A DNA stretch of 64,000 bases from an uncultured bacterium (GCA_965368975.1 CBDUPA010000007.1:217536-281535); one strand, 5' to 3'. Positions 23,998-56,862 are shown, counted from the first letter of the stretch. Numbers and translations: made by a program. The notes: generated by a model not told the origin, from the sequence alone.

Positions 23998-24076
23998 GCC
24001 GAGGTAGCTCAGTTATGGTTAGAGCGCCTGACTGTGGATCAGGAGGTCGGCGGTTCAAACCCGCCCCTCGGTACCA
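23998..24076 (+). tRNA. tRNA-His (GTG), encoded CCA; probable prophage attachment site
   Basis: Acceptor GCCGAGG/CCTCGGT, D stem GCTC/GAGC, anticodon arm CCTGA-CTGTGGA-TCAGG, T arm GGCGG-TTCAAAC-CCGCC, A-CCA. Confidence 0.95.
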
Positions 24077-24199
24077 ACCAAACCCCCTTAAATCCCCTGT
24101 ACAAAGCGCTTTAGGACAAGGACTTAGGCTGTCCTGTTGGTCCTTAGTATTTAATTGATTCTCAGGTTCTGTTGAATTTTGCCGGGTTTTGCTATCCTC

Positions 24200-24221
24200 A
24201 AGGTCGCGGGAAGGTCGCGGG
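24200..24221. repeat. Tandem 11-bp direct repeat AAGGTCGCGGG, likely integrase arm-type sites
   Basis: Two perfect copies between tRNA and integrase in an AT-richer att region. Confidence 0.55.
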
Positions 24222-24238
24222 AAAATCGGAGGTAGCGC

Positions 24239-25654
24239 ATGGCATATCGGTCCCGGCACAGACAGAAGCTCACGCAAGCCCTGGTGAAGAAGGTCCGGAA
24301 GGAGCAGCTCCAAGCTTGCGAGGATGCAGCAGGGCGGCGCCTGCCGGATCGGTACATATGGGATTCCGAATCGCCGCTCGGATTGCGGCTCCACGGCACC
24401 GGCGGCGCGAGCTGGGTCCTGAAGCCCTACGCAGTGCAGATGGCCGGTCGCCGCGAGCCGCGGCGGCACACCTTCGGCCTGGTCTCTGACGTGACGCTGG
24501 AAGATGCACAGGACCGGGCGCGGGATCTGTGGGGGAGATACCTGGACGGCGAGGACCCGGTGGGGGAGATTCAGCAGCGCAAGCTTCTGGCTCGGCAGGG
24601 CCGAGCTAGCGACCCGACTGTGGGAGACCTTGCAGAGCGCTACATGAAGGAGGTTGCCGCCAGCAACAAGCCCGCTACACGGCGAGAGAAGCAGAGAGGC
24701 TGGGATCAGGTCGTAAGGCTGATCGGCGAGCGGCAGGTAGCCAAGGTGGACGCTGAGGACATCGAGTTCGTGTTGCGCTCCATTGGTGACGGAAAGCCCG
24801 TCTGGGCGAACCGCGTTCGAAGCCTCCTGTCGCACGCCTTCAACGTTTGCTCGCGCTGGCGCACAGTAGAGGGAGAGAGATGGCGAGAACTCAACGCAAA
24901 CCCGGTTCTAGAGACCGATCCGAACCGTGAGAGAGGTAAGGGTCGCACCTACTCAGATGTCGAACTGAGGGCGATCTGGACAGCCTTGGGTCGGCTTGAG
25001 GGGCAAGACGAGATTGATTGGGTGCTGGCCATTCTGATCCGGATCTTGATCTACACCGGAGCTCGGCCGGGCGAACCCGCCAGCGCGCGCTGGTCGAACT
25101 GGGATCCGACCAAGCAGCTCATCTGGCTCGAGGAGTCGAAAGCGGATCGCGGCGTAGCCCTGGGTCGGCGGATCTACCTTCCGACACAGGTACTGGAGTG
25201 GGTGCCGTACCTCGGTGCGGCACAGAGCGAGTTCATGTTCCCGCGCCGCAAGCTGAATGCCTCCTGGAGACAGGAGCGCCAGAAGGATGCCAGCGTCACG
25301 AAGACGGCCTGGCGGAAGACATGGCAGAAGGTTGCCGAGGAAGCCGGCCTGGTCGAGACTGCGGGTGTCGCGCCGCAGCTGCGTCACCTGCGCAACACCT
25401 GGATCTCCATGGCTCAACAGGCGGGCATCAAGCAGGCTGAGGCGGGATGGATGGCCGGGCATCGGCCCAGGGGTATGACGGCCCACTACACGGCGCAGCC
25501 GGACGAGTACTGGCTTGAGCAAGCAGAGATCGCCGGCGACTTCATCCGGAAGGCGATTGGCGCTCAGCCCTTGTCGGCGTCGTCCTCGGGCTCTGGAAGG
25601 GCTGCGGTGATCACCTTCAAGCCGGGAATCACCCGGCCGTTGTCCGGGATCTGA
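24239..25654 (+). CDS. int: Tyrosine integrase with N-terminal arm-binding domain
   Basis: YIWD...LGLRL...SWVL arm domain; TGARPGE, ESK, RHLRNT, AGH, TAHY catalytic set. Confidence 0.9.
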   Translation: MAYRSRHRQKLTQALVKKVRKEQLQACEDAAGRRLPDRYIWDSESPLGLRLHGTGGASWVLKPYAVQMAGRREPRRHTFGLVSDVTLEDAQDRARDLWGRYLDGEDPVGEIQQRKLLARQGRASDPTVGDLAERYMKEVAASNKPATRREKQRGWDQVVRLIGERQVAKVDAEDIEFVLRSIGDGKPVWANRVRSLLSHAFNVCSRWRTVEGERWRELNANPVLETDPNRERGKGRTYSDVELRAIWTALGRLEGQDEIDWVLAILIRILIYTGARPGEPASARWSNWDPTKQLIWLEESKADRGVALGRRIYLPTQVLEWVPYLGAAQSEFMFPRRKLNASWRQERQKDASVTKTAWRKTWQKVAEEAGLVETAGVAPQLRHLRNTWISMAQQAGIKQAEAGWMAGHRPRGMTAHYTAQPDEYWLEQAEIAGDFIRKAIGAQPLSASSSGSGRAAVITFKPGITRPLSGI

Positions 25655-35449: not shown

Positions 35450-36859
35450 ATGCGTTACGGACGTCATGTGTGGAATGGTGCGACTCTGCGGCAGTTGACG
35501 ATCTTGGAATTGGCCAACATCCTGGATGAGCAATCGGAGGCGGCCGCGTTGCACATGCCAGCGATGTTGGATCTCTTTCGGTCCAACGAGATTACCGGGG
35601 CGATGGCGGAGCGGCTCGAAGAAGATCAGCTGGACTTGGGTGGACTTTACGGGTTTCGGAAGTCCTACATGCAGCGACGGGCTGGTCGCATCGAGGTACT
35701 AGAGGCGCTAGAGAAGGATCAGTTCCGGGCGCTGTTCGAGTCCGAGCCGGAAGCGGAAACAGCTCCGGTGATCCAGTGGAAGAATCTCGAAGCCGTCGTC
35801 GCGGAGATGGTCAAGCGAAGCCGGAGCACCGTAGATGCCCAGCCGGAGGCTGGGTGGTGGTGGGCCAAGCTGGCGTACGACCTTGCGCATCGCATGAGGC
35901 GTCGATGGGAGGGTGAGAGTCCCGAATCGAAGCTCGAAGTCGCGCTAGGACCCGGCGGTGGACTCCAGGCCTCCGGGAGCCTGGATGAGGACGGCCCGCT
36001 GGGGCACGACTCAGAGAATGAAGCCGAGGTGGAGGCGTGGCGGTTTCTTGAGGCTCGGAGCCTTCGCGCTCTGGCCAATGCCACGCGCGCTATCGGACGT
36101 CTGACGGAAGCAGGGCGACTCTTTGGCGAGGCCGAGCAGTGCGTGGCCGCGAGGGCTTCCGGAGGAGCGTTGACTGCGGAGGTCTGTGACTTGCTCTCGC
36201 TGGAGGCTTCCTTGGAGACTGACAGGGGCAACTGGGAGCGAGGCATAGAGCTTCTGGAACTGCACGGGCAGTTGGCGGACGGAGGGGAGTGGCACAAGGG
36301 ACGCATCAAACTGGCCAAGTTGCACTACGAGCGCGACGACGTGGAGACGGCTATCGCGATAAGCCTAGACTTGGTTCAGCAGATGCCGGCAGGGCGAATG
36401 AGGGATGCCGCTACCCTTAATGTGTGCCTCTACCTGGTTGAGGCGGGGCATGTGCAAGATGCAGAGGATCGACTTCAGGCGAACAAGCTCGCTGGCGTCC
36501 CGGACGAGCGCATCTCTTGGATTCGCGCGAAGATCTTGGCCGCAAAGGGCAGCAGCGAGGCGGAGCGCCACTTCGAGATCGCGCTCAACCGCCTACTGGC
36601 GAAGAGAAACGGACCTCTTGCAGCACTGGTTTGGCTTGAATGGGGGCTCTGGCTCGTGGAGATTAACCGACCCCAGGATGCTGCCGAGAAGGCCAGCCTG
36701 GCAGGAGCGGTCTTGCAGGTGACGGACATGGAAAGAGAGGGCCTAGCCGCTGCCGTGCTAGACCTGCAGGCCAAGCTGCAGCAGCAGGCCCTCACGCTAA
36801 AGGTGGCCGCTCGGCTGCGCTCTGTCTTTGAGGCAGCCTGCAGTGGGCGGCGAGCCTAA
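35450..36859 (+). CDS. TPR-like helical repeat protein (candidate peptide receptor)
   Basis: RBS AGGAGG; tandem helical repeats (LANATRAIGRLTEAGRLF; LAKLHYERDDVETAI; YLVEAGHVQDA); no TM or signal. Confidence 0.8.
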   Translation: MRYGRHVWNGATLRQLTILELANILDEQSEAAALHMPAMLDLFRSNEITGAMAERLEEDQLDLGGLYGFRKSYMQRRAGRIEVLEALEKDQFRALFESEPEAETAPVIQWKNLEAVVAEMVKRSRSTVDAQPEAGWWWAKLAYDLAHRMRRRWEGESPESKLEVALGPGGGLQASGSLDEDGPLGHDSENEAEVEAWRFLEARSLRALANATRAIGRLTEAGRLFGEAEQCVAARASGGALTAEVCDLLSLEASLETDRGNWERGIELLELHGQLADGGEWHKGRIKLAKLHYERDDVETAIAISLDLVQQMPAGRMRDAATLNVCLYLVEAGHVQDAEDRLQANKLAGVPDERISWIRAKILAAKGSSEAERHFEIALNRLLAKRNGPLAALVWLEWGLWLVEINRPQDAAEKASLAGAVLQVTDMEREGLAAAVLDLQAKLQQQALTLKVAARLRSVFEAACSGRRA

Positions 36860-36960
36860 CCGTCAGGATCAATGGCGGCGGACTTGTTGCCCTCGTCTTC
36901 CGCCTGCGATGCCTCGCCACCACCGAACACGGTCTCTACGATCCAAATCAGAAGGTCCAT
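36856..36960 (-). CDS. 34-aa peptide MDLLIWIVETVFGGGEASQAEDEGNKSAAIDPDG
   Basis: GGAGGA RBS 7 nt upstream of ATG; stop overlaps the TPR gene stop; C-terminal motif shared with neighbour. Confidence 0.75.
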   Translation of the reverse strand: MDLLIWIVETVFGGGEASQAEDEGNKSAAIDPDG

Positions 36961-37133
36961 AACACTTTCCTCCAACCCGGCGAGTCGTCGATACACCACC
37001 CCCATGGCGGTGGACGCCCGCCGAAGTCCTAACTCTTCAAGGTACCAAAGCAGAGTCGGCAACGCATGCCCGGCTCTGCTTAAGTACGCGAGTTAGGGGA
37101 GTGGTAGAGATCTGGAGAAGAGCGGGCGAGGGC

Positions 37134-37733
37134 TTAGGCTGGTTGACCGTTCGGGTCGATGGCCGCAGAGGCGCCGTTCGGATCGATCATCACGGACTTG
37201 TTGCCGTTCGGATCGATGGCAGCGGATCGCCCATCGGGGTCGATCATTACCGAGGCGCCATCCGGGTCGATCATTACGGACTTGGCGATCACGAACCCGT
37301 CGGGGTCGATGGCTGACGAGATGCCATCCGGATCAATCATCGCGGACCGACCGTTGGGGTCCAGTGCTGGCGACATCCCGTTCGGGTCGATCGCGGCAGA
37401 CTTGCCATCGGGGTCAATCACTACCGAGCGTCCATTCGGGTCGATCGCGACCGACTTGGCGACGAGGCAGCCGTCCGGATCTATGGCCACCGATCGGCCG
37501 TTTGGATCGATCATTGCCGAAGCTCCGCCAGGATGACTGGCCACCGATTGACCGTTGGGGTCGATGGCTACAGACGCGCCGTTGGGATCGATCGCGACTG
37601 AGCGACCATTTGGGTCGATGGCAGAGGAAAGGCCATCCGGGTCGATCATCACTGATCGGCCGTGCGGATCGATGAAGGTACCGGCGTTGTCGTGAGCGAA
37701 GACAGTCAGAAGAGTCAAGAGCAGTAGTTCCAC
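37134..37733 (-). CDS. Multi-repeat peptide precursor, 19 x xSxxIDP[D/N]G
   Basis: GGAGGA RBS, GTG start, hydrophobic N-terminus, then nonamer repeats with synonymously diverged codons. Confidence 0.85.
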   Translation of the reverse strand: MELLLLTLLTVFAHDNAGTFIDPHGRSVMIDPDGLSSAIDPNGRSVAIDPNGASVAIDPNGQSVASHPGGASAMIDPNGRSVAIDPDGCLVAKSVAIDPNGRSVVIDPDGKSAAIDPNGMSPALDPNGRSAMIDPDGISSAIDPDGFVIAKSVMIDPDGASVMIDPDGRSAAIDPNGNKSVMIDPNGASAAIDPNGQPA

Positions 37734-37881
37734 GGAAGGCTCCTCCAGAGCATGGGTGGGTGATGGCGAGTACTATATCTGAGAGTCTGGTGGTGGTGAT
37801 TTCTCTTGAGTACGTGAGTTAGGATTGGGGCGCGGTTCGAGGTGACCTAGGACGAGCTAGCCAGCAGGAGGATGGTGATCC

Positions 37882-40729: not shown

Positions 40730-41350
40730 CTATTGGCCGCGATACGCCTTCCGCACGAGCTGCCGATGCATCCTCCGCACGAACGCCCTCGCGTCGATGT
40801 GCATGAAGAGATCATCCTCGTCCTCGTAGATGAAGACGAACCCAAGCCATCGCGCTAGGGTCGGCGCTTCCGGCTCCCTCGGATCCCATACCAATGTCGT
40901 CCGCTGAGGAACATCAAGCCCGTGCAGATTGGGCATTACCGATGCCGGCTGCATCTCCCACTTCCGTGGTACCTCGAACAGCTCCCCGAGCAGCTCCAGG
41001 GCAACCTCGTACATGCGCCGGACCTTCTCGAGCGTCGGATCGACGGGTTGCCCATCGGCAGCTCCGAAGATGAGGTGCTGGCTCAGGGGCGCCCCGTCCT
41101 CGTCCTCGTTCTTCTGCGGGTCCCGGTAGGTACTGGTCAGCAGGATTGGAAAGCCGCACCGGTGCCGCACTTCGTCCCATACCCGCAGCGGTAGCACGAT
41201 GTTCGGCCAGAGCACCCTCGGCGGCAGTGCGTATGCGCAAGGCTGGATCACCTCCCACGGCTCGAAGTAGCGCAACCCCAAGCGGCGGATGTAAGCCTCC
41301 AGGGCTACGCGCTGCAGCTCCTGGGGATCACGAAGTCGTAGCCGCCTCAT
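40730..41350 (-). CDS. Endolysin, peptidase M15 family
   Basis: TSTYR...N...GAPLSQHLIFGAAD and FMHIDAR; last gene of late operon. Confidence 0.8.
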   Translation of the reverse strand: MRRLRLRDPQELQRVALEAYIRRLGLRYFEPWEVIQPCAYALPPRVLWPNIVLPLRVWDEVRHRCGFPILLTSTYRDPQKNEDEDGAPLSQHLIFGAADGQPVDPTLEKVRRMYEVALELLGELFEVPRKWEMQPASVMPNLHGLDVPQRTTLVWDPREPEAPTLARWLGFVFIYEDEDDLFMHIDARAFVRRMHRQLVRKAYRGQ

Positions 41351-42648
41351 GCTTCCGTGACCTCCAGGCTGGTTTCTGCGGCGATCTCGGGTGCGCCCGT
41401 CAGGCCTTGAGAGTCCAGGCGCCTGCCAGCGCCGTACCGAGCTTCACCGGCGGCGGACAGGTACCCCCACACGGCACCCTCGGCGCCGGGCAAGTCGTCG
41501 AAGGGCGCCAGTAGCGCCAGGCGATCACTCGGACGCCGAGCAGCGTCCAGTCGCTGTGTCCAGCTGGCGTGCAGCTGCGGCAAGGGCAGGCGGACGCGCC
41601 GGCGCCAGGGGCCCGAATGGAGGCGCAACCCGCCGGAGTACTCGACAGGGTCTCCGGCAGGTACGTCTTCCACCTCGGCTTCACTCCAGCCTGCCGGCAG
41701 CGTGTCTGCTGGTCCGGCGGCGAGGTGTCCCGCCTCGAGGTGCGCAGCCCGTGGTGCTGGGTCGAGCAGATCGACGCGCAAACCACTGGCCGTGACCTCG
41801 TCGAAGACATAGTGCAAGAGCACTGAGGTCGGCAAGGACTCGCCGCGCTGGGGCTCGCGCGAAGCGGCAGGCAGCCACCCGCTGTCATAGGTCAGACCAC
41901 CTTCGACCACCACGACCTCGACCGGGCCCAATTCGACGCCGGCGACGCCTTGTGAGTATCCCGTGACGCGCACAGTCAACGGATCCGCTGGGTTGAGTAG
42001 GTCGTCAATGCCGAAGGGCAACGCGTGGACACCCTCCCAGCGGGAGGCATTGGCTAGTTCCCACGATCTACGCAGGGGCGAGCTATAGGTGGCCACCACC
42101 TGTCCGGCCTGCAGCAGCTCCAGGCGTATGCCTTGCTCAGGAGGTGCCACGACGTCGGCGGAGTAGCGCACGCGCGCGAGGACTAGGTGCTGGCGCAATC
42201 CGGCGACGGCGCCGGCGGGAGGCGCGGGCAGATCGATGTCGGCGGACACGGTGAGTGCCGGATCAGTCGGTGCCCACCAGGTCCCCGGTGTGACTTCGGC
42301 GGCGCCGGCCGGCAGGGAACCAGACAGGTTGGTGGACGCAGAGGTCCCCGTGGGCGCCAATCGGGTTGGTGGTGGTGGTGCAACTCCTAGGCGCACGCGC
42401 CACAGACCGAGCGGGGAGAGGTTGGTGCGCGGTAGGCAGACGGCGCTCACGGGCTGATCCTCGGGAAAGAGGCAGTGCAACCAAGAGGACGAGCTCGCCG
42501 GCGACGTCGAGCGCCAGACGTCGCCTGTGGCGGGCGACTGATCTGCCTGCAGGCGCCACGCCTCGGCCCCCACCTGCTCGGTAGCAGCTGAGGTCGCAGC
42601 GCCTGCGGCAGCGGTGGCGAGGTTACGCCAGAGGAGCGCGGTGCCCAT
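41347..42648 (-). CDS. Putative tail protein
   Basis: Position; YDSGW motif; beta-rich. Confidence 0.6.
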   Translation of the reverse strand: MGTALLWRNLATAAAGAATSAATEQVGAEAWRLQADQSPATGDVWRSTSPASSSSWLHCLFPEDQPVSAVCLPRTNLSPLGLWRVRLGVAPPPPTRLAPTGTSASTNLSGSLPAGAAEVTPGTWWAPTDPALTVSADIDLPAPPAGAVAGLRQHLVLARVRYSADVVAPPEQGIRLELLQAGQVVATYSSPLRRSWELANASRWEGVHALPFGIDDLLNPADPLTVRVTGYSQGVAGVELGPVEVVVVEGGLTYDSGWLPAASREPQRGESLPTSVLLHYVFDEVTASGLRVDLLDPAPRAAHLEAGHLAAGPADTLPAGWSEAEVEDVPAGDPVEYSGGLRLHSGPWRRRVRLPLPQLHASWTQRLDAARRPSDRLALLAPFDDLPGAEGAVWGYLSAAGEARYGAGRRLDSQGLTGAPEIAAETSLEVTEA

Positions 42649-42946
42649 CGATCAGAGCCTTGGTGATGCGGTCTAGCTCCTCCATGGAGCGCTCATAGAA
42701 GTTCTGCGAGCGCGCCATGCGCTCCGCACTTCTGTCATCGCCGGACGCGAGTTCATCCATGAACTCGCGGTGGTTATCCAGGATGAGCCGGTTCAGGTTC
42801 GCCGTCAGGAGTGCGAGAGACCGCAGTCCTCGGCTCTGCCGAAACAGGATGACGGCTACGACCACCAGTGCGCCGGCAACCACCCCGCCGAGGCCATACT
42901 TCTCGATCAGCTTCAGGAGGCCATCCAGGAGCGCGCCCTCAGCCAT
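42623..42946 (-). CDS. Putative holin
   Basis: Single N-terminal TM (YGLGGVVAGALVVVAVILF) plus coiled tail; near endolysin. Confidence 0.55.
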   Translation of the reverse strand: MAEGALLDGLLKLIEKYGLGGVVAGALVVVAVILFRQSRGLRSLALLTANLNRLILDNHREFMDELASGDDRSAERMARSQNFYERSMEELDRITKALIDGHRAPLA

Positions 42947-43877
42947 TGCTGGACACCTCCAGGGCCTGGGCGAGCGACCGGTTCAGGCTCGACAGCTCTT
43001 CCAGGATCAGTCGGAGCAGCTCCAACCGCTCGAGGTCCGCCGGCTTCGTCGCAGGGGGAGCGGGCTCCACCGCTGGCGGTGCCTCTCCGGTGTTCTCCGG
43101 GGTATCGGTCACTGCGAACACCTCGAAGATGGTTGAACCCTTGGCGCTACAGAGGCCGAAGCCTCGACACTCGTCGTTGCTCCCCTGGGCTCGATAGATC
43201 GCCTCGACGACGTGGACGCCCTGCTCGACGAGCGCGCAAGTTGTGAAGGCGCCATCGGTGCGTGCGCAGAAATGCGGCCACTCCCAGTAGCCGTTGTGCA
43301 GTGTTGCGAACCCGGTCTCGTAGCTGGCCACGCAAGTGACCGAGTCGCCGGTCTCGACGGTGGCTGGCGTACAGGTCACCTTGACCTTGATGTGCTCATC
43401 CCCATCGGAAACACCGATCGTCATACGGCCGCCCACCGAGCACCGAAGGGCGCCGACCCGGACATCCGCTACGGCGAACATGCTGTGGTTTCCCTTCGTC
43501 TCGTAAACGAACGTCAGGCTGGTTCCGTCGGTAGTGCGCTCCAGCTCGGGCAGAAGAAATGACGACAGCTCCCAGTGGACACGGGCCCCCTGGGCGAGCG
43601 TCATCGACCCTGGTAGCTCCAGGGTCACGGTGATCGGGTCGCCGGCTTTGCCGCGGGCCGGGCCTGCCAGGCCAACACCGCCGCGAATCTCGGACGGACA
43701 CGGTGGACTGAGTCGCAGTGCCCGGCTCTTGGCGGCGAGCATCATCGAGGTGGGTTCGCCAGGCTGTGCCTGCGTAGCCTGGAGCAAGCCTCGAATATTT
43801 GGCACTGCGCCAGGGGTGATGCCCTGGGCTGGCACTGCGAGGATCAAGGCGAGAGCGAACAGGAATCGATTCTTCAC
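42939..43877 (-). CDS. Exported Cys-rich protein with Ig/PKD-like domains
   Basis: Signal peptide MKNRFLFALALILAVPAQG; GDPITVTL and TGDSVTC beta-sandwich-like repeats. Confidence 0.6.
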   Translation of the reverse strand: MKNRFLFALALILAVPAQGITPGAVPNIRGLLQATQAQPGEPTSMMLAAKSRALRLSPPCPSEIRGGVGLAGPARGKAGDPITVTLELPGSMTLAQGARVHWELSSFLLPELERTTDGTSLTFVYETKGNHSMFAVADVRVGALRCSVGGRMTIGVSDGDEHIKVKVTCTPATVETGDSVTCVASYETGFATLHNGYWEWPHFCARTDGAFTTCALVEQGVHVVEAIYRAQGSNDECRGFGLCSAKGSTIFEVFAVTDTPENTGEAPPAVEPAPPATKPADLERLELLRLILEELSSLNRSLAQALEVSSNG

Positions 43878-43888
43878 GGAGAGTCTCC

Positions 43889-46312
43889 TTATTGAATAAC
43901 CACGGGTTGTGCGAAGTCTTCGCCGCGGGCGAACAGCTCGACGACGAAGGAGCGAGAGACGGCGCTGAGAGGCTTTGCTCCCAGCAGGACGAACGTCACA
44001 TTGGGCAGGTCGAGGTCATCCCGAATCGCCTGACTCAGACCGACAGCCGCTCCAGGCGTCGGCGTGCCGGATGGCCAGATGACGGGGAAGCGGGCCTGCC
44101 ATCCGCCGTGGAGGTGCCAGGCTTGGCGCCGACGCGCTTCTGCGATGGCCGGCGCCGGCGTAGCCAGGGCGGTCGGATAGATGGCCGGTTCGAGGTCCCC
44201 GTCACCCTCATGCCAGATAGAGGCGGGGACCGAGGCCTTGGCGTACTGTCGCGCCAGGCGCCGTGCGTCGATCTCGGCGCCGCCGGCGAGCTGACCAGCG
44301 TCGAAGGGATCCCAGGAGCGGGAGTGCTGGATGACGACCTCCAGGTAGTCCGGAGGGACCGACAGCGGTTCAAAGGTGCCCTCGGCCAAGTCCTGGAGAA
44401 CGACATCGGGTTCTGCGTCGCGCTCCGGCACGTCCAACTCCCGAATCTCCGCGCCAGGCGCCGGCAGATAGAAGGCGCGGCCACAAGCGGCGACGAGATC
44501 GAAGCCGCGGCGCGCCGCATCGCCCTTGGTCCGGTATCCACAGACGCCGTCATCCCAGACGCCACCGGCGAGCTGATCGATACCGGTGACCGGCTCGCCC
44601 ATCAGCTCGAACGTCCGCTCGAGCACCGGGCCCGGCAGCTCGACGTAGTCACCTCCGGGGGCATCGCCGTAGATGTCGAAGCGCAGCTCACCATCCGAAG
44701 GGTCGAAAGCCATCCAAACCAAGCCGCGCTCCAGGTCCACGTCGAAGTCCCAGAGCCCGCCCTCGTTCGCGATGGAGCCGGCGCCGGCGGTATCCGGCAC
44801 AGTCGTGATCAGCGGCACCTCGGCGGCATAGGCGCTGCCCTGTGGCAGCTCGTAGCCGGGACCGGCAAGGATGATGTCGCCTGGCGTCCCTGCGATAGTG
44901 ACCGTCAGCTCCTGATCTCGAACGAGTCGTCGCGCCAGCGCGGCGTCGTCGAACTGCAACGCGCCACCAGCGAAGGCCAGGTTGCCCGAGTACTCGACCT
45001 TCGGCACCAGCTCGACGCCCGACATCGTGCCAAAGAGATTGTGGAACTGGCGCGGGTGCGCGGCCAGTAGATTGGTGCGGGAGTCCAGGACGTCGAGCTT
45101 GCAGCCCAGGGCGCGCCCGACGACGGCATGTCGGGGTTCGCCGGAGAGTTCCGGGAGACCGCCGGTCCCGTGCTGCCAGTCGGCGTCACCGAGGCGTACC
45201 GCTTCCAAGCCTGCAACCGAATCGAAGGCGGATCCAGCTCCCTCGTTCAAGCTCAGCAGGAACTTCGCGGTCGTCGTCTCCGGGTTCTCCGGGCGGTTCC
45301 AGCCGGTCCGGATCTCGTCAAAGTCGAGCTGCTCGTGCCAGAGGGCCACCTCCATGACGGCGCCGGTCAGTGCGCGCGTCCAGCCGTCGTTACGAGCACA
45401 GATACGCAGGTGCTTGCCAGATGGAGCCGCGAACATCGTGCCCGTTCCCGTGGTGTAGGCGACCCGTTCCCCGTTGACGAAGATCCAGGCCGTCCAGGCG
45501 GCACCAGAACTGATGCCGTCGGCGAACATCGCGTGGATGGTGAACTCTTCACCGATGGTTGCCACGCCTGCAGGCGTCACGACCTGTGTCGCTCCACCGT
45601 CCGGACTGAAGTAGAGCGACCCGCCAGGCTGCAGACGCAGGAACCAGCCGCTCGGATCGTTGATCACGGCCAGGTCCGCCGCGGCGGTCAGTGAGTCAGC
45701 GCGGCAGCGGACCTTGATTGCCAGCTTCGCCTTGGGGCCCGATTCGAATGCGGGGTCGCCTTCGACCTGCAGCAGTCCGGCACCTTGGAGGCGTACCTCG
45801 TTGCCATAGCCGGAATAGAACCAGGCTTGATGCTCCTGCAGCGACCTGTCGAGAGCGACCTCGATGGCCGCACGGGCCTGAAACGCCACCTCGACCGGGT
45901 TCGGCTGCCAGCTCGTCAGCCTGCCGTCGAACTCCACCTGGAACTCCTCCAGAGGGGCACACTCGGGCCCGGTGAGGTAGAGCAGGCGCACATCCTTACC
46001 CTTGAGGCCGTGCAGCAGCTGCTGAAGCTTGCCGGCCACCTTGCACGAGAAGGTGCCCGGCGCAGAGGTGCCAGCGATGGCGTCCGGACGGTAGGCGTAG
46101 ACCGCCGGCAGCTCGACGTCGCGCAGCCCCTCCTCGAAGAACTGGTTCGACAGCTCGACGCCGGCGAGCGTGCCGGAGACCTTCTTGCCGCCTACCTGGG
46201 TGGTGGCGTAGAAGGTCGCTGGCGAGTAGCTCCGCGCTTCTCCGGTGCCGATTGTTGGCATGAGTGTGCGCCGCTCCAGGTAGACGATGAGCAGTCCGAT
46301 TCGTGATTCCAT
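43889..46312 (-). CDS. Tail tip protein with LamG/concanavalin-like insert
   Basis: Follows tape measure; WIFVNGE...MEVALW...LNEGAGS LamG pattern. Confidence 0.7.
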   Translation of the reverse strand: MESRIGLLIVYLERRTLMPTIGTGEARSYSPATFYATTQVGGKKVSGTLAGVELSNQFFEEGLRDVELPAVYAYRPDAIAGTSAPGTFSCKVAGKLQQLLHGLKGKDVRLLYLTGPECAPLEEFQVEFDGRLTSWQPNPVEVAFQARAAIEVALDRSLQEHQAWFYSGYGNEVRLQGAGLLQVEGDPAFESGPKAKLAIKVRCRADSLTAAADLAVINDPSGWFLRLQPGGSLYFSPDGGATQVVTPAGVATIGEEFTIHAMFADGISSGAAWTAWIFVNGERVAYTTGTGTMFAAPSGKHLRICARNDGWTRALTGAVMEVALWHEQLDFDEIRTGWNRPENPETTTAKFLLSLNEGAGSAFDSVAGLEAVRLGDADWQHGTGGLPELSGEPRHAVVGRALGCKLDVLDSRTNLLAAHPRQFHNLFGTMSGVELVPKVEYSGNLAFAGGALQFDDAALARRLVRDQELTVTIAGTPGDIILAGPGYELPQGSAYAAEVPLITTVPDTAGAGSIANEGGLWDFDVDLERGLVWMAFDPSDGELRFDIYGDAPGGDYVELPGPVLERTFELMGEPVTGIDQLAGGVWDDGVCGYRTKGDAARRGFDLVAACGRAFYLPAPGAEIRELDVPERDAEPDVVLQDLAEGTFEPLSVPPDYLEVVIQHSRSWDPFDAGQLAGGAEIDARRLARQYAKASVPASIWHEGDGDLEPAIYPTALATPAPAIAEARRRQAWHLHGGWQARFPVIWPSGTPTPGAAVGLSQAIRDDLDLPNVTFVLLGAKPLSAVSRSFVVELFARGEDFAQPVVIQ

Positions 46313-46315
46313 GGG

Positions 46316-49300
46316 TTACTCCTCAATGTCGGGCCTTGCTCCGCGGCGGAAGTCCGCGGCAGGCTGCAGTAGACGAATCTGGCGGTCGCGTTGCTCGGCG
46401 GCGCCGGCAGCCTGTCGGCCCTGCTGGCGAGTCAAACGCGCAACCTCGGAGCGCAGGGAAGAGACCTCGCGGTTGCGCTGCTCACCCTGCTTGACGACCT
46501 CGCGGCGCAACTCCCGAATCTCGTCGACGAGCAGTGCCTTCTCGAGCTTGTGCTGTGTTTCCTGAACGGGTAGCGGCAGCGGCAGCAGGTCGGTGCCGGT
46601 GCGCTCCAGTGCCTCCGGCTGCGGCGCGGAGACTTGCCACCATTCCGGAGGCCCGGCGATGAGCTGGGCACCGCTGGTGATCTGGTGCCAGAGCTGCTCT
46701 TGTGTGCGCGCAGCCATCTCTGCCATGAACGAGACGTCCGGTGTCGGGAGCTGGTCGCCAGGGATGTAGCCAGTGACGAAGGGTTCGATATCGCCGCGAA
46801 CCATGTCGCTCAGTGCGCCCAGCGCCGCGGTCGGTCCGTACATTGCCTCGCCTGCCTGCAGTAGGCGCTGAGCGACGCCTTCGAGACTCTGCAAGGCCTC
46901 GAGGTCGCCAGCTTGAGCAGCGGCCAGCGTTTGGTCGTAGGCGCTGCGCGCGGATCCCAGTTCGTCACGCGCGGATAGGTGACTGAACGGCGAGGTGCCG
47001 CCCGACAGTTCGTCGTAGAGACCGCGCAGACCGCCGGTCACCTCCTCCATGAGGGCGGTGATCACTTCAGCTCGCTTCTCCTCGACGGCGAGCACGTCCT
47101 TGCCGTAGCGCTCCGCCAGCTCGACATAGGCGTCGTATTCTTCGTTGATCGCGTCCAGCCTTGCCTGGATGCCCTCAGGCTCGGAGCTGGCGGTGAGCCG
47201 CTCGAAGAAGTCATCGATCAGTGCCTGCTCGGTATCCGTCACCTTCTGACGTGCTTCGCCGAGGTCGACCCCGAACTGGGCCAAGAGGGCAGCCTGCGAA
47301 TCGAGACCGGCCAGCTGGTCACGGATCTCTCCCAGCTGCGCCAGGGAGCGCTCGAGCTGTTCGGCGGGGGAGAGCTGCTCTGTGCCGGCGATTGCCGACA
47401 GCTGGTCGAGCAGGCGCGTCACGTTGTCGACGAGAGGGTTGCCCAGCGCGCCCGCAGTGCCGCCTCCTACGTAGCCGGTGGTCGAGGCGGATGCAGAGGC
47501 GCGAATCTCCTCCTTGAGCGATTCGGCTCGAGCCCCGAAGGCCTCGTCGACCAGGTCGGCCCACTCATCCCACACACCCAGTGCACGCAGCTGCGCTTCG
47601 AGCTTGAGGCGCTCGATTTCCAGCGCCTGGAGAGCCAGCTCCAAACGCCGCTCCTCGTAGCCTTCGGCGGTGCCGAGGTACCGGAAAAGTCCCTCGATTA
47701 GCTGGTGCTCCTTTAGAACCAGCGCCTGAGATTCGGCCAGATCCACCTCGGCGAGCTGTTCAGCGGCCTCGACGTAGCTACGAGTGGTTTCCCGGATCTG
47801 ATCGCGCAGCTCTTCGGCTTTGGCGCGGATCGAAGTGACCTCGTCGACACCGGCGGCAACGGGTGATAGCTCGGAAAGCGATACTTCGCGCTGAGCCTCT
47901 GCGGCTGCCTGGGTCGCGGTAGCCGCTTCCATAGCGGCATCGCGGGCAGCCTGCCAGACGTCCGCGTACTGATCCCACACCCCTAGGGCCTGCAGCTGTG
48001 CCTTGAGAATCGCGAACTCCATCTCCAGGCGTCGTTCGGCCAGGTCGCGTTGCTGCTGCAGGAACTCCCGGCTCTCTCCGAGGTAGCCGAACAGTCGGTC
48101 GAGCACCCCCAGCTCAGCAGACTCCAGTGCGTTCTCCAGGGCGCGCTGGATTGCCGTGGCCATTGCTTCTTTGCGCTCATCGGAGATGTTGAGCGAGTCG
48201 ACCTCGGCGCGCAGGTTGGCAGCCTGCTGGTGGAGCTGCTCGATGCTGGCGGCAGCGGACTGGATCGGGTCGAGCTGGGCAATCTGAGCGGCGACGCTCT
48301 GGACAACTGCCTCGGCCTGCTGCTCGAACGCGCTGGTCAGCTCGTTGACCCGCGCGGCGGTCTCTTCGGCCGAGAGTCCGAGTTCCATCACCTCTTCGAT
48401 CAACTCGTCGCGGAGGCCTCGCAGATCCGCGACCCTGCCGCCGGCAGTCTGCTCGCCGCCCGAAGCGTAGTCGGCGATGCGCGTGTCGAGGTCTTCCAGG
48501 ATCCGCGCGCGTGCGGCAGCCTGGGCACCGGCGAGACGCTCCGCAGCGAGCGCATGCTCCTCGCCGCGCAGTCTGGCAAGGATCTCTCCTGCTCGCTCGG
48601 ATTCCGCTGCCAGCCGCTCGAGGGCGGCAGCGGTCGGAGAGAGGTCACCCCGCTCCATGAGCGTCAGAATCTGGTCGAGTTCTTCGCGGGCCTCGGCGAT
48701 GGGTTGCCGGTTCCCGCCGCGGCGGACGTCGCCGGGGTCGATTCGATCGGGCAGGGCATTGAGCTGCGCCAGGATCGCGTCGATCATCTGCTGGAGGTCT
48801 TCGGCGCGATTGGCCACGGCTCCACCCGCCTGACCAATGCTGCGCACCACCACGTCGATTGCGGCGGTGATCTCTCCGCCGAGTTCGGACGCTTCGTTGA
48901 ACACCCGGTGCGACATACCGGAGATCTCGCCACCGGCGCCCATCAGTTGGTCCAGTAGGTGCAGGTAGCGGGCCAGCTCTTCGCGTAGCTCGGCCTCTCG
49001 GCGATCCCGCTCCTGATTGAAGGGGTCCACCATGTTGAGGCGCTGCTGGAACGGGTCGGGCTGGTTGCCGACGATGTGATCGCGCAGAGCCTGGAGACTG
49101 TCGCCCCACGCGGTGATCGCGCCGTTCAGATCGAGACCGAGCTCGCGGAAGCGGCGGACCTGGTCCTCGAAGATTCGATCCACCTCCCGCATGTCCTGGA
49201 CGATCTGAGGCAGCCCGAGGTCTCGATGCTCGACGGCGGTCTGGATGTGCTCCAGGAGTCCTTCGATCGTGCTGTGCGCAGTGGACTGGAGAGCCGCCCG

Positions 49301-52300
49301 GACCGAGGGGCTGAAGTCTCCGCCGGCCTGGCGGAAGGCTTCGGCGACTGCCGCGTCGAGGGCCTCCTCGTAGGAGTGGAACGTGCCGACCAGCACGTTG
49401 CCCACCAGGGCCTTGAACTTCTTCCCGTTGTTCTTGGCTCGGATCGCGATGCGCGGCAGGCTGTCGACCGCTTCCCCCATCGCCGCTTCGATCTGGCGGA
49501 TGGCGTCCCCGACCGCGTTGGCAGCGTCCTGGAGAGAGCCCGCGGCGTGGTCGACGTTGAGTTGCCCCCCTGTGACGGAGGCACCGACCGCGGTTCCGTA
49601 GCGCTGCGCGGTGTTGTTGGCGGAGTAGGCTTCGATCGCCAGATAGAAGGCACCGACCCACAGCGCCGCGGCAGCGCCGGCGCTCAGACCGGCGCCGGCA
49701 CCGCTGGTGCCACCCCCCAGGCCGGCAACACTGGAACCGGCGCTGAGCAGGCCATCGACCCCGGACCCAGCACCGCCAGACGTCGCACTGATAGCCAGCC
49801 GCTGCAGCTCCATCGCCGACCACTCGGCCAGCATTTGCACGAGAAGCTGCTTGAACTGCGACAGGATGTCGCCAAAGATGTCGCTGAACGACTCATCGCT
49901 TGCGCCAGCGAGGGCGCCGAGCGTCCGTTCCCAGCCCTGAAGCATCAAGCCCTGCGCATCTTCCCAGCCCTGGACCAGGGGCGCGTACAGCTCCTTCTGA
50001 CGCTCCTCGGCCAATCGGCGGCCGTCCTCGATTGCCTCCTGGCTCAGTACCTCCGCTTCGGTTTCAGCGTCGATCGCATCAGCGAGGCGCAGGCGCTCGG
50101 TCACCAGGTCCCGGATTTGCCGCAGGCGATCGGCATCGATCTCTCCGCCTTCGCGCGCGACCTGCGCGTGGATCGCCTCCTGGATGGTCAGTTCTCGCGT
50201 AGCGCTCGATGCGCGCCGCACAGCCTCGTAGACCTGCCTCATTCGCTCGACCTCGCGGTCCAGTTCGGCGGCACCTTCGCGCTGCTGGCGCTGTCGCTCG
50301 GCCTCGGCCCGCGCGGCGGCAACTCGCTCCTCGAGGACGGCCATCTCGAGCAGCTTGCCGGCGATTTGCGCCAGGGATGTCAGAGAGCCGGAAACGCCTT
50401 GCTTCTGAGCGATCGCAGCGGCGCGCGTGGCGAGCTTGTAGGCATCGACGGCATCGGCTCCCTGGTTCCAGGCAGCAGCGAGGCCTCGGAGGTCGCGTAA
50501 CTCGCCTTCGAAGCTGGCGCGGGCCTCTCGGCGGGCCTGCGCTAGTCGCTCAGCCTTGCGCGCTCGCTCCTCTTCGGCGTCGGCTGCCTCACGAGCTGCT
50601 TCGGCTTCCTGTTGCGCCTGGAAGATCGCGCGGGCCCGCTCTCTGGCAGCCTTCTCTTGCTCCTCGCGCCGGCGCTCGACCTCCTCGGTGATCTCGGCTT
50701 CTTTCGCGTGAAGTCTGGAGATGACGAACTCAAGCTGTGCCACCTGATTCTTGTACCGATCCAGTTCCTGAGAGGCTGCATCGAGTCCCTGTCGCTGCTG
50801 ATTGAACTCAGCAATATTCCGCGGCTTCGCGGCTTCCCTGGCAGCCTCTGCCAGTTGCAGCTTCGCTTGTGCTGCAAGCAGATCTGCCTCGCGCTCCTCG
50901 AGGAGTTGAGCCGTTCGCCGGCGGCTAGCTTCGGAGTACTCCTCAAGGCCCCAGTGCAGCCGCGAGAGGTGCGCTTCTGTTTCCGTCATCGCGGCGTTGT
51001 GATCCCGCATTGCCCGCTCGGCTTCCGACTCGCGAAGCGCGAAGAACGTGACGGCGGCAGCGGCAGCAGCGAGGCCGGCAGTCACCATGCCGAGTGGGGT
51101 AGCCAAGAATCCGGCGTTGAGAGCCGCCCAGCTGATGCTCGCTGCCCTGATCGCTGCCACCACTTGGCCGCCCAGAACGACGGCAAGAGCGCTCATGCCG
51201 GCGATAAGTACCGGCAACCACTTCGAGCTGAGATCCGACATCACGCTGACGCTGCGACCGAGCATCTCGGCGAGCGGCGCTCCCTGGCGCAACAAGGCCG
51301 TAACCGCCTCGGTCAGGTCCCGGACGCCTGGAGTGGCGTGCGCGCCGAAGGTGATGCCGAATGACTCGGCAGCCGAGATCATTGCCCGGAAGGAGCCTCC
51401 GAGATTGTCTTCCATGGTGGTGGCCATGTCCGCGGCTGCGCCGGACGTGGACTCCATCTCTTCGGTGAGCCGCTTCATGCCGTCCACCACGCCGCCCTGG
51501 GTCAGGAAGAGAGCGGCGGGGCCTGCGCGCTGCCCGAAAATCTGGAAGGCAGCACCGGCGTCAAGGCCCGCATCCGACAGTCGCTGCAGCACGGTCTCCA
51601 GGTCGACGAAAGCTGGGTTGACCTCCTCCCAGGTGAGACCGAGTCCCTCGAGTGCGTGCTGCGCCTGGCGTGACATGTTGGAGAGCTTCGCCAGGATGCC
51701 GCGCACCGCCGTACCAGCCATCTCGCCCTGGATGCCGGCGTTACCGAGCATTGAGATTGCCGAGATCACTTGTTCGAGATCCTGACCCAGGGCTGCCGAC
51801 GTCGGAGCCGCGTAGGCCATCGCATCGCCGAGCTGCGTCACGTTGGTGTTCGCGCGAGCCGTGGCAAGAGCGAGATCATCCGCCACCACGCCGCTCTCGT
51901 GGGCACCCATCTGGAACGCCGAGAGCACATTGCTCAAGATGTCGGCCGAGCGACCCAGGTCCAGCGCGCCGGCGCTGGCCAGGTTCAGCGAATCCGAAAG
52001 GCTGGCCAGGATGCCGGCGGCGCTGAAGCCGGCCCGCGCGAGGAATTCCTCAGCTTCAGCGGCCTGCCGGGCGGTGAAGCGGGTCGAGGCTCCGAGTTCA
52101 CGGGCTCGCTGGGACAGCTGCGCGAACTGGTCGTCCGTCGCGCCGGTGACCGCCTTGACGGTCGACATGGTGTCTGCGAAGCCAGCGGTGGCGTGCAGCG
52201 CCAGGCCCATCGCTAGAGCAAGGGCAGTAAGGCCTAGCTTCAACTGGCCGACGCGCTTCGAAAGGCCGTCGAAGTCACCTTGGGCCCGGATTGCTTGCTG

Positions 52301-52582
52301 AGCAGCCCCCTTGAGTGAGCCGGCAGTCTTTCGAGCCTGGCGACCGAGTTTCCGCAGTCCTTCGGCGGCCGCGCGCGCCCGACGGGCGGCACCGCTAAGA
52401 GTGTTGCTCAAGCCTCGCTTGGCGCGCTCCAGCATGCGGCTGCTGCGCGTCGACTGGTCCAGACTGCGCGAGGATCGGCGTACGGACCGCTCCATCTGCG
52501 ACAGTCCGCGGTCGACGCGACGCGATGCCCGAACCAGGCCGGATACATCGCCGTCTACTCGGAGAGTGACCGTCTCACTCAT
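46316..52582 (-). CDS. Tape measure protein (TP901-like core)
   Basis: 2088 aa helical; ARELGASTRFTARQAA, ANTNVTQLGDAM, AGIQGEMAGT. Confidence 0.95.
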   Translation of the reverse strand: MSETVTLRVDGDVSGLVRASRRVDRGLSQMERSVRRSSRSLDQSTRSSRMLERAKRGLSNTLSGAARRARAAAEGLRKLGRQARKTAGSLKGAAQQAIRAQGDFDGLSKRVGQLKLGLTALALAMGLALHATAGFADTMSTVKAVTGATDDQFAQLSQRARELGASTRFTARQAAEAEEFLARAGFSAAGILASLSDSLNLASAGALDLGRSADILSNVLSAFQMGAHESGVVADDLALATARANTNVTQLGDAMAYAAPTSAALGQDLEQVISAISMLGNAGIQGEMAGTAVRGILAKLSNMSRQAQHALEGLGLTWEEVNPAFVDLETVLQRLSDAGLDAGAAFQIFGQRAGPAALFLTQGGVVDGMKRLTEEMESTSGAAADMATTMEDNLGGSFRAMISAAESFGITFGAHATPGVRDLTEAVTALLRQGAPLAEMLGRSVSVMSDLSSKWLPVLIAGMSALAVVLGGQVVAAIRAASISWAALNAGFLATPLGMVTAGLAAAAAAVTFFALRESEAERAMRDHNAAMTETEAHLSRLHWGLEEYSEASRRRTAQLLEEREADLLAAQAKLQLAEAAREAAKPRNIAEFNQQRQGLDAASQELDRYKNQVAQLEFVISRLHAKEAEITEEVERRREEQEKAARERARAIFQAQQEAEAAREAADAEEERARKAERLAQARREARASFEGELRDLRGLAAAWNQGADAVDAYKLATRAAAIAQKQGVSGSLTSLAQIAGKLLEMAVLEERVAAARAEAERQRQQREGAAELDREVERMRQVYEAVRRASSATRELTIQEAIHAQVAREGGEIDADRLRQIRDLVTERLRLADAIDAETEAEVLSQEAIEDGRRLAEERQKELYAPLVQGWEDAQGLMLQGWERTLGALAGASDESFSDIFGDILSQFKQLLVQMLAEWSAMELQRLAISATSGGAGSGVDGLLSAGSSVAGLGGGTSGAGAGLSAGAAAALWVGAFYLAIEAYSANNTAQRYGTAVGASVTGGQLNVDHAAGSLQDAANAVGDAIRQIEAAMGEAVDSLPRIAIRAKNNGKKFKALVGNVLVGTFHSYEEALDAAVAEAFRQAGGDFSPSVRAALQSTAHSTIEGLLEHIQTAVEHRDLGLPQIVQDMREVDRIFEDQVRRFRELGLDLNGAITAWGDSLQALRDHIVGNQPDPFQQRLNMVDPFNQERDRREAELREELARYLHLLDQLMGAGGEISGMSHRVFNEASELGGEITAAIDVVVRSIGQAGGAVANRAEDLQQMIDAILAQLNALPDRIDPGDVRRGGNRQPIAEAREELDQILTLMERGDLSPTAAALERLAAESERAGEILARLRGEEHALAAERLAGAQAAARARILEDLDTRIADYASGGEQTAGGRVADLRGLRDELIEEVMELGLSAEETAARVNELTSAFEQQAEAVVQSVAAQIAQLDPIQSAAASIEQLHQQAANLRAEVDSLNISDERKEAMATAIQRALENALESAELGVLDRLFGYLGESREFLQQQRDLAERRLEMEFAILKAQLQALGVWDQYADVWQAARDAAMEAATATQAAAEAQREVSLSELSPVAAGVDEVTSIRAKAEELRDQIRETTRSYVEAAEQLAEVDLAESQALVLKEHQLIEGLFRYLGTAEGYEERRLELALQALEIERLKLEAQLRALGVWDEWADLVDEAFGARAESLKEEIRASASASTTGYVGGGTAGALGNPLVDNVTRLLDQLSAIAGTEQLSPAEQLERSLAQLGEIRDQLAGLDSQAALLAQFGVDLGEARQKVTDTEQALIDDFFERLTASSEPEGIQARLDAINEEYDAYVELAERYGKDVLAVEEKRAEVITALMEEVTGGLRGLYDELSGGTSPFSHLSARDELGSARSAYDQTLAAAQAGDLEALQSLEGVAQRLLQAGEAMYGPTAALGALSDMVRGDIEPFVTGYIPGDQLPTPDVSFMAEMAARTQEQLWHQITSGAQLIAGPPEWWQVSAPQPEALERTGTDLLPLPLPVQETQHKLEKALLVDEIRELRREVVKQGEQRNREVSSLRSEVARLTRQQGRQAAGAAEQRDRQIRLLQPAADFRRGARPDIEE

Positions 52583-53777: not shown

Positions 53778-53779
53778 GA

Positions 53780-55024: not shown

Positions 55025-55033
55025 CAGGGACTC

Positions 55034-55800: not shown

Positions 55801-55837
55801 GCGGCACCGCCAAGTTCGATGTAGTGACCGGAATCCA

Positions 55838-56691: not shown

Positions 56692-56694
56692 GAC

Positions 56695-56862
56695 TTACGC
56701 CTTCGCCTTCGCCTTAGGATCGGCCTTCGGCTCTGCCGCTTTCTTGACGATGCCGGACTTCTCCCAGGCCTCGAGCGGATAGTCGGGGTGGTCCTTGGAG
56801 TCCAGAACTTCGCCGACCTTCAAGGCCTTGACTGTCACCGGCACCATCACTGTGTACTTCAC
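56695..56862 (-). CDS. Small Lys-rich virion-associated protein (55 aa, not in ORF track)
   Basis: GTG...MKYTVMVPVTVKALKVGEVLD...KAKAKA; overlaps the upstream stop. Confidence 0.6.
   Translation of the reverse strand: MKYTVMVPVTVKALKVGEVLDSKDHPDYPLEAWEKSGIVKKAAEPKADPKAKAKA

Follow-up and report, generated by a model that had tools for sequence, protein, structure and literature searches.

A prophage gene from an uncultured bacterium was found to encode a 199-residue polyprotein composed of 19 diversified nine-residue cores. This gene is a genuine one, with selection acting on the encoded peptide. As judged from its sequence relatives, the core is part of a cassette of two genes, so far uncatalogued, in which a small core-containing protein is encoded beside a ~430-residue cytoplasmic TPR protein. 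We assign a probability of about one half to the reading that the polyprotein is a multi-core ligand, or pro-peptide, for TPR receptors, similar in kind to the Phr and arbitrium peptides and possibly released by lysis. What is new here is the peptide/TPR cassette family together with the 19-core prophage version of its ligand. Throughout, the window denotes the whole 64,000-nt stretch of DNA that was analyzed, and its features are collected in the table.

The polyprotein gene and its prophage setting

Cutting the polyprotein after every D/H-P-x-G yields 19 units, the number counted in an earlier sequence-only reading of this DNA, and the 19 nonamers printed in this way are all non-identical. 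Sixteen of the units are exact 9-mers, two are 13-mers with the extra residues CLVA and FVIA, and one is a 10-mer with an extra Asn; both of the four-residue spacers that had been described are thus recovered, as is the single degenerate unit (SHPGG). The first unit lacks the Ser of the core consensus, x-S-x-x-I-D-P-x-G, and the polyprotein ends in the tail QPA. The same reading had held that variation is confined to the residues preceding an invariant DPxG. One correction is needed here: the Ser at position 2 (18/19) and the Ile at position 5 (17/19) are also conserved, which leaves the variation at positions 1, 3, 4 and 8.

The coding sequence of the units has diverged far more than the motif they encode. 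Pro, Gly and Ser are each specified by four different codons among the units, codons differ at 58% of the positions at which two units have the same residue, and mean between-unit identity is 0.62 for nucleotides and 0.65 for amino acids. A Nei-Gojobori analysis with unit pairs pooled gives a saturated pS of 0.77 and, over the whole unit, a pN of 0.25, with a pN of 0.46 at positions 1–4 and of 0.09 at positions 5–9. Saturated synonymous sites in combination with a conserved core indicate selection at the level of the peptide and not recent slippage of the DNA, as the synonymous codon differences had suggested at the outset. Tandem Repeats Finder reports merely 3 copies with a 27-nt period and 71% matches. 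At the DNA level units that are two apart are more alike (0.66) than adjacent ones (0.58), and the array therefore has an 18-residue super-period. On the + strand, a 125-residue open reading frame (37159–37536) mirrors the repeat.

Upstream of the polyprotein gene is a 19-nt element with only two matches in the 7.1-Mb genome, both of them exact and one located 5' of each of the two core-peptide genes in the window; the search covered the entire genome with a degenerate pattern that permitted up to 3 mismatches. A scan of positions 36600–38100 gave no sigma-70-like promoter and one terminator-like site, the latter at chance level. The first 13 residues of the polyprotein form a hydrophobic motif that is not a canonical signal peptide. 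By alignment, this motif is common to the 34-residue product of the neighboring core-peptide gene and to core peptides encoded on contigs C1 and C28, and in a by-eye comparison it is similar to a W/L-rich helix located just after the signal peptide of the chromosomal homologs described below. Signal peptides are absent from the 199- and 34-residue proteins and likewise from the C1 and C28 peptides, all of which begin at the hydrophobic helix motif.

Features of the window and their coordinates (positions counted from the first letter of the window)
Feature	Position	Strand	Remarks
Source DNA, uncultured bacterium	GCA_965368975.1 CBDUPA010000007.1:217536-281535		64,000-nt window, contig C7
Prophage end: tRNA-His (23998-24076), then tyrosine integrase	23998..25654	+	
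469-aa TPR protein gene	35450..36859	+	Convergent with both peptide genes
34-aa single-core peptide gene	36856..36960	-	ATG start; GGAGGA at 36968-36973
19-nt element, second copy, upstream of 34-aa gene	37079..37097	-	Pattern search and alignment
199-aa polyprotein CDS	37134..37733	-	GTG start, TAA stop; GC3 0.70 vs GC2 0.49
Array of 19 nonamer cores, aa 17-196	37146..37685	-	Inserts: two of 4 aa (hydrophobic), one of 1 aa
N-terminal hydrophobic helix motif of polyprotein, aa 1-13	37695..37733	-	Alignment; AF2 helix at residues 2-13
Shine-Dalgarno GGAGGA of polyprotein gene	37741..37746	-	7 nt 5' of GTG
19-nt element CCTAACTCACGTACTCAAG upstream of polyprotein gene	37805..37823	-	Degenerate-pattern search of genome
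Membrane pentapeptide-repeat protein gene, after late genes	39651-40709	-	
Late genes: large terminase, portal, major head, tail, tape measure, M15 endolysin	40730..62421	-	Same strand as polyprotein

The integrase is followed by a rightward block of small genes, which encodes a DUF5131 protein, a patatin-like protein and a 720-residue acidic protein with a weak DnaA_N-like stretch. The gene for the 469-residue TPR protein follows this block, and the polyprotein gene is found beyond the late and lysis genes, on their strand. With the integrase and early genes on one side, the late array on the other and the peptide genes between them, the polyprotein locus is a prophage accessory locus where the early and late arms join. 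GC content at this locus is lower, at 0.57–0.61. The 34-residue peptide has the same hydrophobic start as the polyprotein and its last residue is the Gly of its core; at its stop codon the gene shares 4 nt with the 3' end of the TPR gene. A comparable arrangement is observed in a related prophage on contig C28, in which a homologous TPR gene is paired with a convergent, overlapping gene for a 37-residue leaderless core peptide. The C1 core-peptide gene adjoins an M15 endolysin fragment and a pentapeptide-repeat gene, and for this reason we take the C1 locus to be a prophage remnant.

Core peptides and their TPR partners

The host genome assembly comprises 7.1 Mb in 59 contigs. A six-frame scan of this genome revealed further open reading frames for small proteins with one or a few cores, and the polyprotein units were compared with these, a check that followed from the proposal that each core might match IDPxG peptides elsewhere in the host. 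The closest relationship is found in the 47-residue C1 peptide, which shares the N-terminal motif and has one core that is identical to unit 7 and another that is one position off unit 3. The 80-residue C23 peptide has a clear signal peptide and four identical cores, each one position off unit 13, and the core of the 34-residue peptide in the window likewise differs from a polyprotein unit at 1/9 positions. Other host peptides contain three cores (C6, 43 residues) or a single core following a signal peptide (C22, 46 residues). The polyprotein cores resemble one host sub-type only.

The genes for these peptides are found beside genes for TPR proteins. Those on C6, C22, C21 and C26 are located immediately 5' of genes for paralogous ~430-residue TPR proteins, and that on C23 is convergent with its TPR gene, as in the window. 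More core open reading frames are found 5' of TPR paralogs at two C12 loci and on C27, C21 and C1, so that on a relaxed reading 12 of the 17 TPR loci of the host genome possess one; none was seen at the remaining loci on C2, C44 and C9, at C27:4239 or at C1:310146. With a strict pattern, 7 of the 40 open reading frames that have the motif at their C-terminus genome-wide fall near the 17 TPR loci (within ~1 kb of each, about 56 kb altogether), where 0.31 would be expected (Poisson P 5e-8). An ECF sigma factor was considered as a common third partner and rejected, a gene for one being found within 1.5 kb at merely 3/59 TPR loci.

The linkage extends across the order to which the host belongs. 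The C22 TPR protein has matches at E<=1e-10 in 100/151 genomes of the order, many of which contain at least 11. For the 30 best TPR loci, a small core open reading frame is present in 27/30 of the upstream same-strand segments and in 0/30 when the opposite strand of the identical segments is used as the control; two of the three loci that missed the core pattern have variant cores. Beyond the order, none of 13 distant TPR homologs was accompanied by a core open reading frame, and in an even sample of the phylum the TPR family was detected at E<=1e-20 in 11/301 genomes. By inspection, the chromosomal small proteins share a layout in which a Sec-type signal peptide is followed by a W/L-rich amphipathic helix, a linker and then the cores, which number from one to five or more with variable linkers between them and which follow a family pattern of small or polar residues, a hydrophobic residue and D-P-x-G. 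In at least 13/30 of these proteins the last residue is the Gly of the core. At a locus in a genome of the same family, at least 8 units of 12–13 residues at a contig edge are followed by a TPR gene. A comparison with 300 genomes of the order turned up no ortholog of the 19-core gene; 8 of these genomes contain any match at all, and every match is shorter. In Pfam and NCBIfam, neither cassette partner matched a curated family beyond generic TPR models.

By sequence, the host TPR partners are cytoplasmic, without transmembrane or signal sequences. They begin with three short helices containing a conserved H..H-x4-C-x2-C motif, and in an alignment of 23 partners C33 and C36 of this short helical region are invariant and H2 and H28 nearly so. 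This pattern resembles the zinc motif of ZAS anti-sigma domains. The TPR protein of the window is composite in its relationships: residues ~195–465 share their TPR domain with the chromosomal cassette family (82/300 genomes at E<=1e-6), and the first ~190 residues, which are unassigned to any family and have no Cys pair, have their sole match in the C28 prophage homolog of the same genome, with none in the order's 299 other genomes. Domain-family searches recognized neither an HTH nor another output domain in the TPR proteins.

An AF2 model of the TPR partner (pLDDT 87.6) is all helical, with the short helices joined by a flexible linker to a TPR superhelix. In a VIA-align search the top rows are tied among LGN (Z 23.3), RapJ bound to PhrC (Z 23.2, rmsd 3.6, 293 residues aligned), the phi3T Rap with its pheromone (Z 23.1), NprR (Z 22.6) and RapF (Z 22.1), and the best TM score obtained with Foldseek is to RapJ (0.57). 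As the eukaryotic scaffold LGN ties with the Rap proteins, the fold match says no more than that this is a peptide-binding type of TPR. In sequence comparisons, Pfam and NCBIfam return generic TPR and MalT-TPR families, with AfsR/NsdA below cut-offs, and a PDB profile search places RapF (E 1.2e-5) among generic TPR proteins. The TPR partner is not a sequence member of the curated Rap, NprR, PlcR, Rgg or AimR models of Pfam and NCBIfam. Collectively, the models suggest that the TPR partner may be a peptide-binding superhelix like those of Rap and NprR.

A model of the complex between the window TPR protein (22-row alignment) and the 34-residue peptide (4-row alignment), the latter used in place of the polyprotein, gave a score of 0.75 (0.80, 0.75 and 0.73 in the individual runs), and the best of three controls scored 0.02. 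The mark applied to this score is attained by 58/80 solved complexes and by 2/110 mismatched pairs, a calibration that is only rough here because self-made alignments were used, and since solved TPR-peptide complexes exist, the pass may partly reflect resemblance to structures already known to the predictor. The runs share at least 47% of their contacts, with a partner pLDDT of 45–52, at which the partner's fold is uncertain. On the peptide side the predicted interface consists of residues 24–34, the last 11, which correspond to the core and two further residues. On the TPR side it includes the conserved residues N210, S254, A301, N324, R354, W357, D397, R429, E430 and A433. These ten, out of 37 interface residues within the TPR part, coincide with conserved alignment columns (34 in all), against an expectation of 4.6 (P 0.007). 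The model thus supports, as a prediction, docking of the core in a conserved groove of the window TPR protein.

A putative multi-core ligand and the competing readings

We propose that the polyprotein is a tandem-expanded prophage member of the small-protein family, in which the short linear core would be the ligand of the neighboring TPR protein, and that the polyprotein would supply many copies of this ligand (~19). Most likely it would function as a pro-peptide that is cut after each Gly into nonamers. The cut is placed at this position because many family members terminate at the core's Gly and because it is the simplest way of making the internal cores equivalent to theirs; as the polyprotein ends in QPA, only cutting would give any core a free Gly at its C-terminus. 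Neither a protease near the gene nor a conserved cleavage site in the polyprotein, dibasic or of another known type, was recognized. Escape of the polyprotein when the phage lyses the cell is plausible because it has no export signal and its gene is positioned behind the endolysin gene on the late strand. Neighboring cells would then take up the nonamers, which may occupy the phage TPR receptor and perhaps host paralogs of the same core type (C23). The host genome encodes five Opp/Dpp-type binding proteins (SBP_bac_5), with which peptide uptake would be possible. In this manner the nonamers would report past lysis, as a Phr- or arbitrium-like signal amplified about 20-fold per translation product. 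That the polyprotein is a signal precursor had already been suggested by the sequence-only reading, and the suggestion gains from its context (the near-identical single- and few-core peptides, the TPR linkage at 12/17 and 27/30 loci and the complex model) while keeping the standing of a proposal.

The main rival to this reading, which we consider rather unlikely, is that the polyprotein remains uncleaved in the cytoplasm and is a multivalent decoy, binding many phage or host TPR molecules and sequestering or clustering them, by which the phage would silence or hijack the host's peptide-sensing network from inside. The lack of a signal peptide, the tight packing of the 19 cores, their match to the host C23 cassette and C1 peptide, the cytoplasmic nature of the TPR partners as judged by sequence and the binding of core to groove predicted by the complex model would all suit such a decoy. 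However, the spacing of nine residues is too tight for several ~45-kDa TPR proteins to bind adjacent cores, the cores are like those of a single host sub-type, and the termination of at least 13/30 family members at the core's Gly suggests that a free C-terminus matters, which internal cores do not have.

An improbable reading, and more so than the decoy, is that the array is a structural repeat with no ligand role, be it a beta-hairpin meander, a beta-solenoid or a Ca-binding nine-residue repeat. It draws on the 539 library proteins that match the polyprotein at E<=0.001, the best 150 of which are mostly long proteins with nine-residue PDG-type repeats ("x5-PDG"), some of them with Pfam Tcp10_C; moreover, AF2 draws one four-residue strand in each unit, and the 18-residue super-period would fit a two-strand coil. 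RTX beta-rolls and Tcp10_C/G-box proteins share with the polyprotein a nine-residue period, a Gly/Asp turn and alternating hydrophobic residues, but they differ from it in consensus. The RTX nonapeptide consensus is GGxGxDxUx. This pattern is absent from the units, no RTX/HemolysinCabind or other Ca-binding repeat family was matched in Pfam or NCBIfam, and Tcp10_C (PF07202) is returned at E 0.094 with 12.8 bits against a cut-off of 36. Structure prediction, carried out with AF2 on the single polyprotein sequence, gave no confident fold (pLDDT 40.5, pTM 0.19). Relatives have 1–5 cores with variable linkers between them, or one core at the C-terminus, and such spacing is more in line with a linear motif than with a structural repeat; the linkage of the cassette to TPR genes also speaks against a purely structural role. 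The solenoid or Ca-binding alternative that accompanied the sequence-only reading has no support here but keeps a small probability.

Two further readings are each very unlikely. Multi-core precursors occur in several RiPP classes, and the repeated cores with their conserved Ser and Asp could in principle be joined by Ser-Asp ester or other cross-links through a modifying enzyme, an option that had been raised for this gene. It finds no support: among the neighbors in the prophage segment examined no ATP-grasp, radical SAM, cyclase, protease or transporter was recognized, and the sole partner that recurs at most of the 30 best TPR loci is a TPR protein in which no enzyme domain was recognized. 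Alternatively, the array might be a neutral or decaying runaway expansion of the 34-residue gene with no function of its own. The lack of an ortholog in the 300 genomes of the order and the one degenerate unit could be read in this way; against it stand an intact frame, a strong Shine-Dalgarno sequence, the gene's own copy of the 19-nt element and synonymous saturation accompanied by a core pN of 0.09.

Searches of wider collections returned little for either cassette partner. No match of near-polyprotein length was found in a protein word index, none of 14 pattern matches in viral contigs was confirmed, and the ESM Atlas gave no usable match. Among the INPHARED phages the polyprotein has a single weak match (MW202691, E 2e-4, 36% over 57%), and the TPR protein has no match. 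A search of sequencing runs listed no RNA run and one DNA run, the latter with 0.30 of the searched words. PHROGs and PADLOC contained no match for the polyprotein, the TPR protein or a 339-residue neighbor, and a genome-contig collection scanned with the C22 TPR protein yielded none. Matches of the polyprotein to CN_hydrolase, TruB_C, FlgE and other Pfam and NCBIfam models were rejected as repeat-driven, with 0–1 matched stretches. In the full texts searched, no relevant description of a DPNG-type core motif was found, the papers returned being unrelated ones, e.g. on the NDPNG of GH32.

Taken at its widest, the multi-core ligand reading would mean that a diderm order, probably of the Acidobacteriota, possesses together with its prophages a large set of cassettes for peptide pheromones and TPR receptors, often at least 11 in a genome and absent from the papers searched, that the phage broadcasts lysis by means of a leaderless 19-core polyprotein cut into a nonamer cocktail for its own and host receptors, and that the whole is an independent or very distant counterpart of RRNPPA/arbitrium systems. 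We hold this larger picture tentatively, at less than even odds.

Relation to known peptide systems

The host is not a member of the Bacillota. The window contains a lipid A acyltransferase gene, from which we take the host to be diderm, its GC content is 0.57–0.69, and the nearest named relatives of the host ETF-QO are from Acidobacteriota MAGs (<=68% identity); assignment to the phylum Acidobacteriota is tentative. If the proposed role is correct, a diderm cassette family with prophage copies would extend the logic of peptide and TPR receptor to a new part of the bacterial tree, and the family would offer dozens of natural ligand-receptor pairs for studies of specificity. The leaderless 19-core precursor behind a lysis cassette suggests lysis as a means of secretion.

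Precursors with many tandem short signals in one product, both amplified and diversified, are known from eukaryotes, as in yeast alpha-factor and the FMRFamide-type precursors, which travel the secretory pathway and are cleaved at defined dibasic sites. The polyprotein is like these in its many tandem signal copies and differs from them in that neither dibasic sites nor a secretory route is seen. Binding of C-terminal peptides by TPR domains also has precedents: the TPR domains of Hop and CHIP grip EEVD and that of PEX5 grips PTS1. KLC1 with C-terminal cargo peptides (6fuz, 6fv0) is among the structure-search matches of the TPR partner. Cassette TPR proteins have no sequence relationship to those of Hop/CHIP, PEX5 or KLC1, but they share with them a ligand, here a putative one, that often ends the protein, and conserved Asn and Arg residues (N210, N324 and R354) line the predicted groove.

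In the arbitrium system (AimR-AimP-AimX) of SPbeta-like phages, the phage encodes both a TPR receptor and the peptide that goes with it, the active part of the peptide being at its C-terminus. The window is similar in both respects, a putative phage TPR receptor being paired with a phage peptide that has its putative active part at the C-terminus. It differs in that the window TPR protein has no recognized HTH, no equivalent of aimX is known here, the peptide is leaderless, the genes are convergent and overlapping and not operonic, and the phage libraries PHROG and INPHARED are without any match to the window TPR protein. Arbitrium peptides are described as engaging in cross-talk with non-cognate receptors (PMC13220667), and this documented cross-recognition makes a peptide cocktail plausible here.

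The RRNPPA family, described for Bacillota (PMC10075063, PMC9765709, PMC11343458), consists of cytoplasmic TPR receptors, each encoded next to a propeptide of 50–120 residues that is exported by Sec and from which a mature peptide of 5–10 residues is derived, usually from the C-terminus (PMC11343458). The Sec-signal propeptide is, by eye, present in the chromosomal cassettes and is absent from the 199- and 34-residue proteins of the window. The accounts on which we drew describe TPR-receptor peptide signaling and arbitrium-type phage decisions in Bacillota and their mobile elements only, and among them we found no report of such a release route, or of signal amplification of such a degree, in bacteria or phages, the reported tandem pheromone copies numbering 1 to 4. 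According to the main text of one of these accounts, RRNPPA propeptides hold "between 1 and 4" pheromone repeats, and two Bacillus phage Rap-Phr systems, those of phi3T and phi105, have duplications that give several active pheromones (PMC11343458). From these Rap-Phr systems, as they are described there, the window differs in its 19 cores as opposed to 1 to 4, in the absence of a Sec signal peptide from the prophage versions, in a host that is not of the Bacillota, in having no RRNPPA sequence membership and in a nine-residue core with an invariant DPxG. They are nevertheless among the closest in arrangement, being phage-borne, with a TPR receptor gene beside a small gene that encodes several near-C-terminal copies of a short ligand (in the window a putative one), the same or slightly varied, and with receptor folds that tie at the top of the structure search. 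By analogy, then, and on paper, the cassette would work like an RRNPPA or arbitrium system while standing outside these families in sequence.

Core arrays inside and outside the prophage

The 19-core array of the prophage polyprotein is divided by two 4-residue inserts, CLVA (aa 89-92) and FVIA (aa 147-150), into blocks of 8, 6 and 5 units. Both inserts resemble VFA, with which the hydrophobic motif at the N-terminus closes, and the blocks look as if larger segments, helix remnant included, had been duplicated. Cores of the polyprotein type also occur in two large library proteins with signal peptides, P0001 (731 aa) and P0003 (783 aa), which carry 23-26 of them and match no Pfam family. Here the cores are irregularly spaced and are flanked by two unassigned domains on one side and by C-terminal short acidic-aromatic repeats on the other. 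In a same-family genome, the small protein of one cassette (L002, G002:C16:1-1850) has at least eight tandem units of 12-13 residues each, a lower bound as it runs into the contig end, and a second cassette in that genome (L042, G002:C34) has five units. Core expansion is therefore also found in chromosomal, signal-peptide-bearing cassettes.

Variation among the cassettes

In a genome from another family of the order (L167, G008:C150), a TPR gene is preceded by a 25-aa leaderless ORF consisting of a hydrophobic helix and a core-like end in which Asn replaces Asp; leaderless forms are thus not limited to prophages. On contig C2 of the studied genome (~253400-254979) an ECF-type sigma factor gene takes the place of the core peptide ahead of a TPR paralogue, a gene order that recurs at two loci in the set of 59 TPR loci retrieved from other genomes (the three ECF sigma hits are included in L161, L049 and L040). 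This arrangement hints that some members of the TPR family function as anti-sigma-like proteins. A trypsin-like peptidase gene lies ~650 bp upstream of the three-core peptide gene on contig C6; it could encode a processing enzyme, or its position could be coincidence.

Neighboring prophage genes

The 352-aa pentapeptide-repeat protein has two N-terminal hydrophobic segments ahead of its repeat domain, and a paralogue adjoins an endolysin fragment in the C1 prophage remnant; a holin-like or exclusion role could be envisaged. The 339-aa ORF sits in the lowest-GC stretch (0.57), has a hydrophobic, Gly/Ala-rich C-terminal segment and gave no matches in Pfam, NCBIfam, PHROGs or PADLOC.

Locations of the features discussed
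Feature	Location	Strand	Context
DUF5131 protein and patatin-like phospholipase genes	window 28588-31268	(+)	early arm of prophage
19-core polyprotein gene	window 37134-37733	(-)	
339-aa ORF	window 37882-38901	(+)	divergent from polyprotein gene
Pentapeptide-repeat protein, 352 aa	window 39651-40709	(-)	directly after M15 endolysin gene
Further entries with the 352-aa protein	G000 C1:681163-681576; C1:393301-394215		
Trypsin-like peptidase gene	L012, G000 C6:264245-265162		Pfam Trypsin_2, E 4e-8

In the early arm, the DUF5131 protein matches the PADLOC candidates PDC-M41B/M30B (E 8e-28) and the patatin-like phospholipase a PADLOC effector model (E 6e-8), the latter having a homolog of 47% identity in the related prophage on C28. 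The two are possible prophage-borne defense genes.
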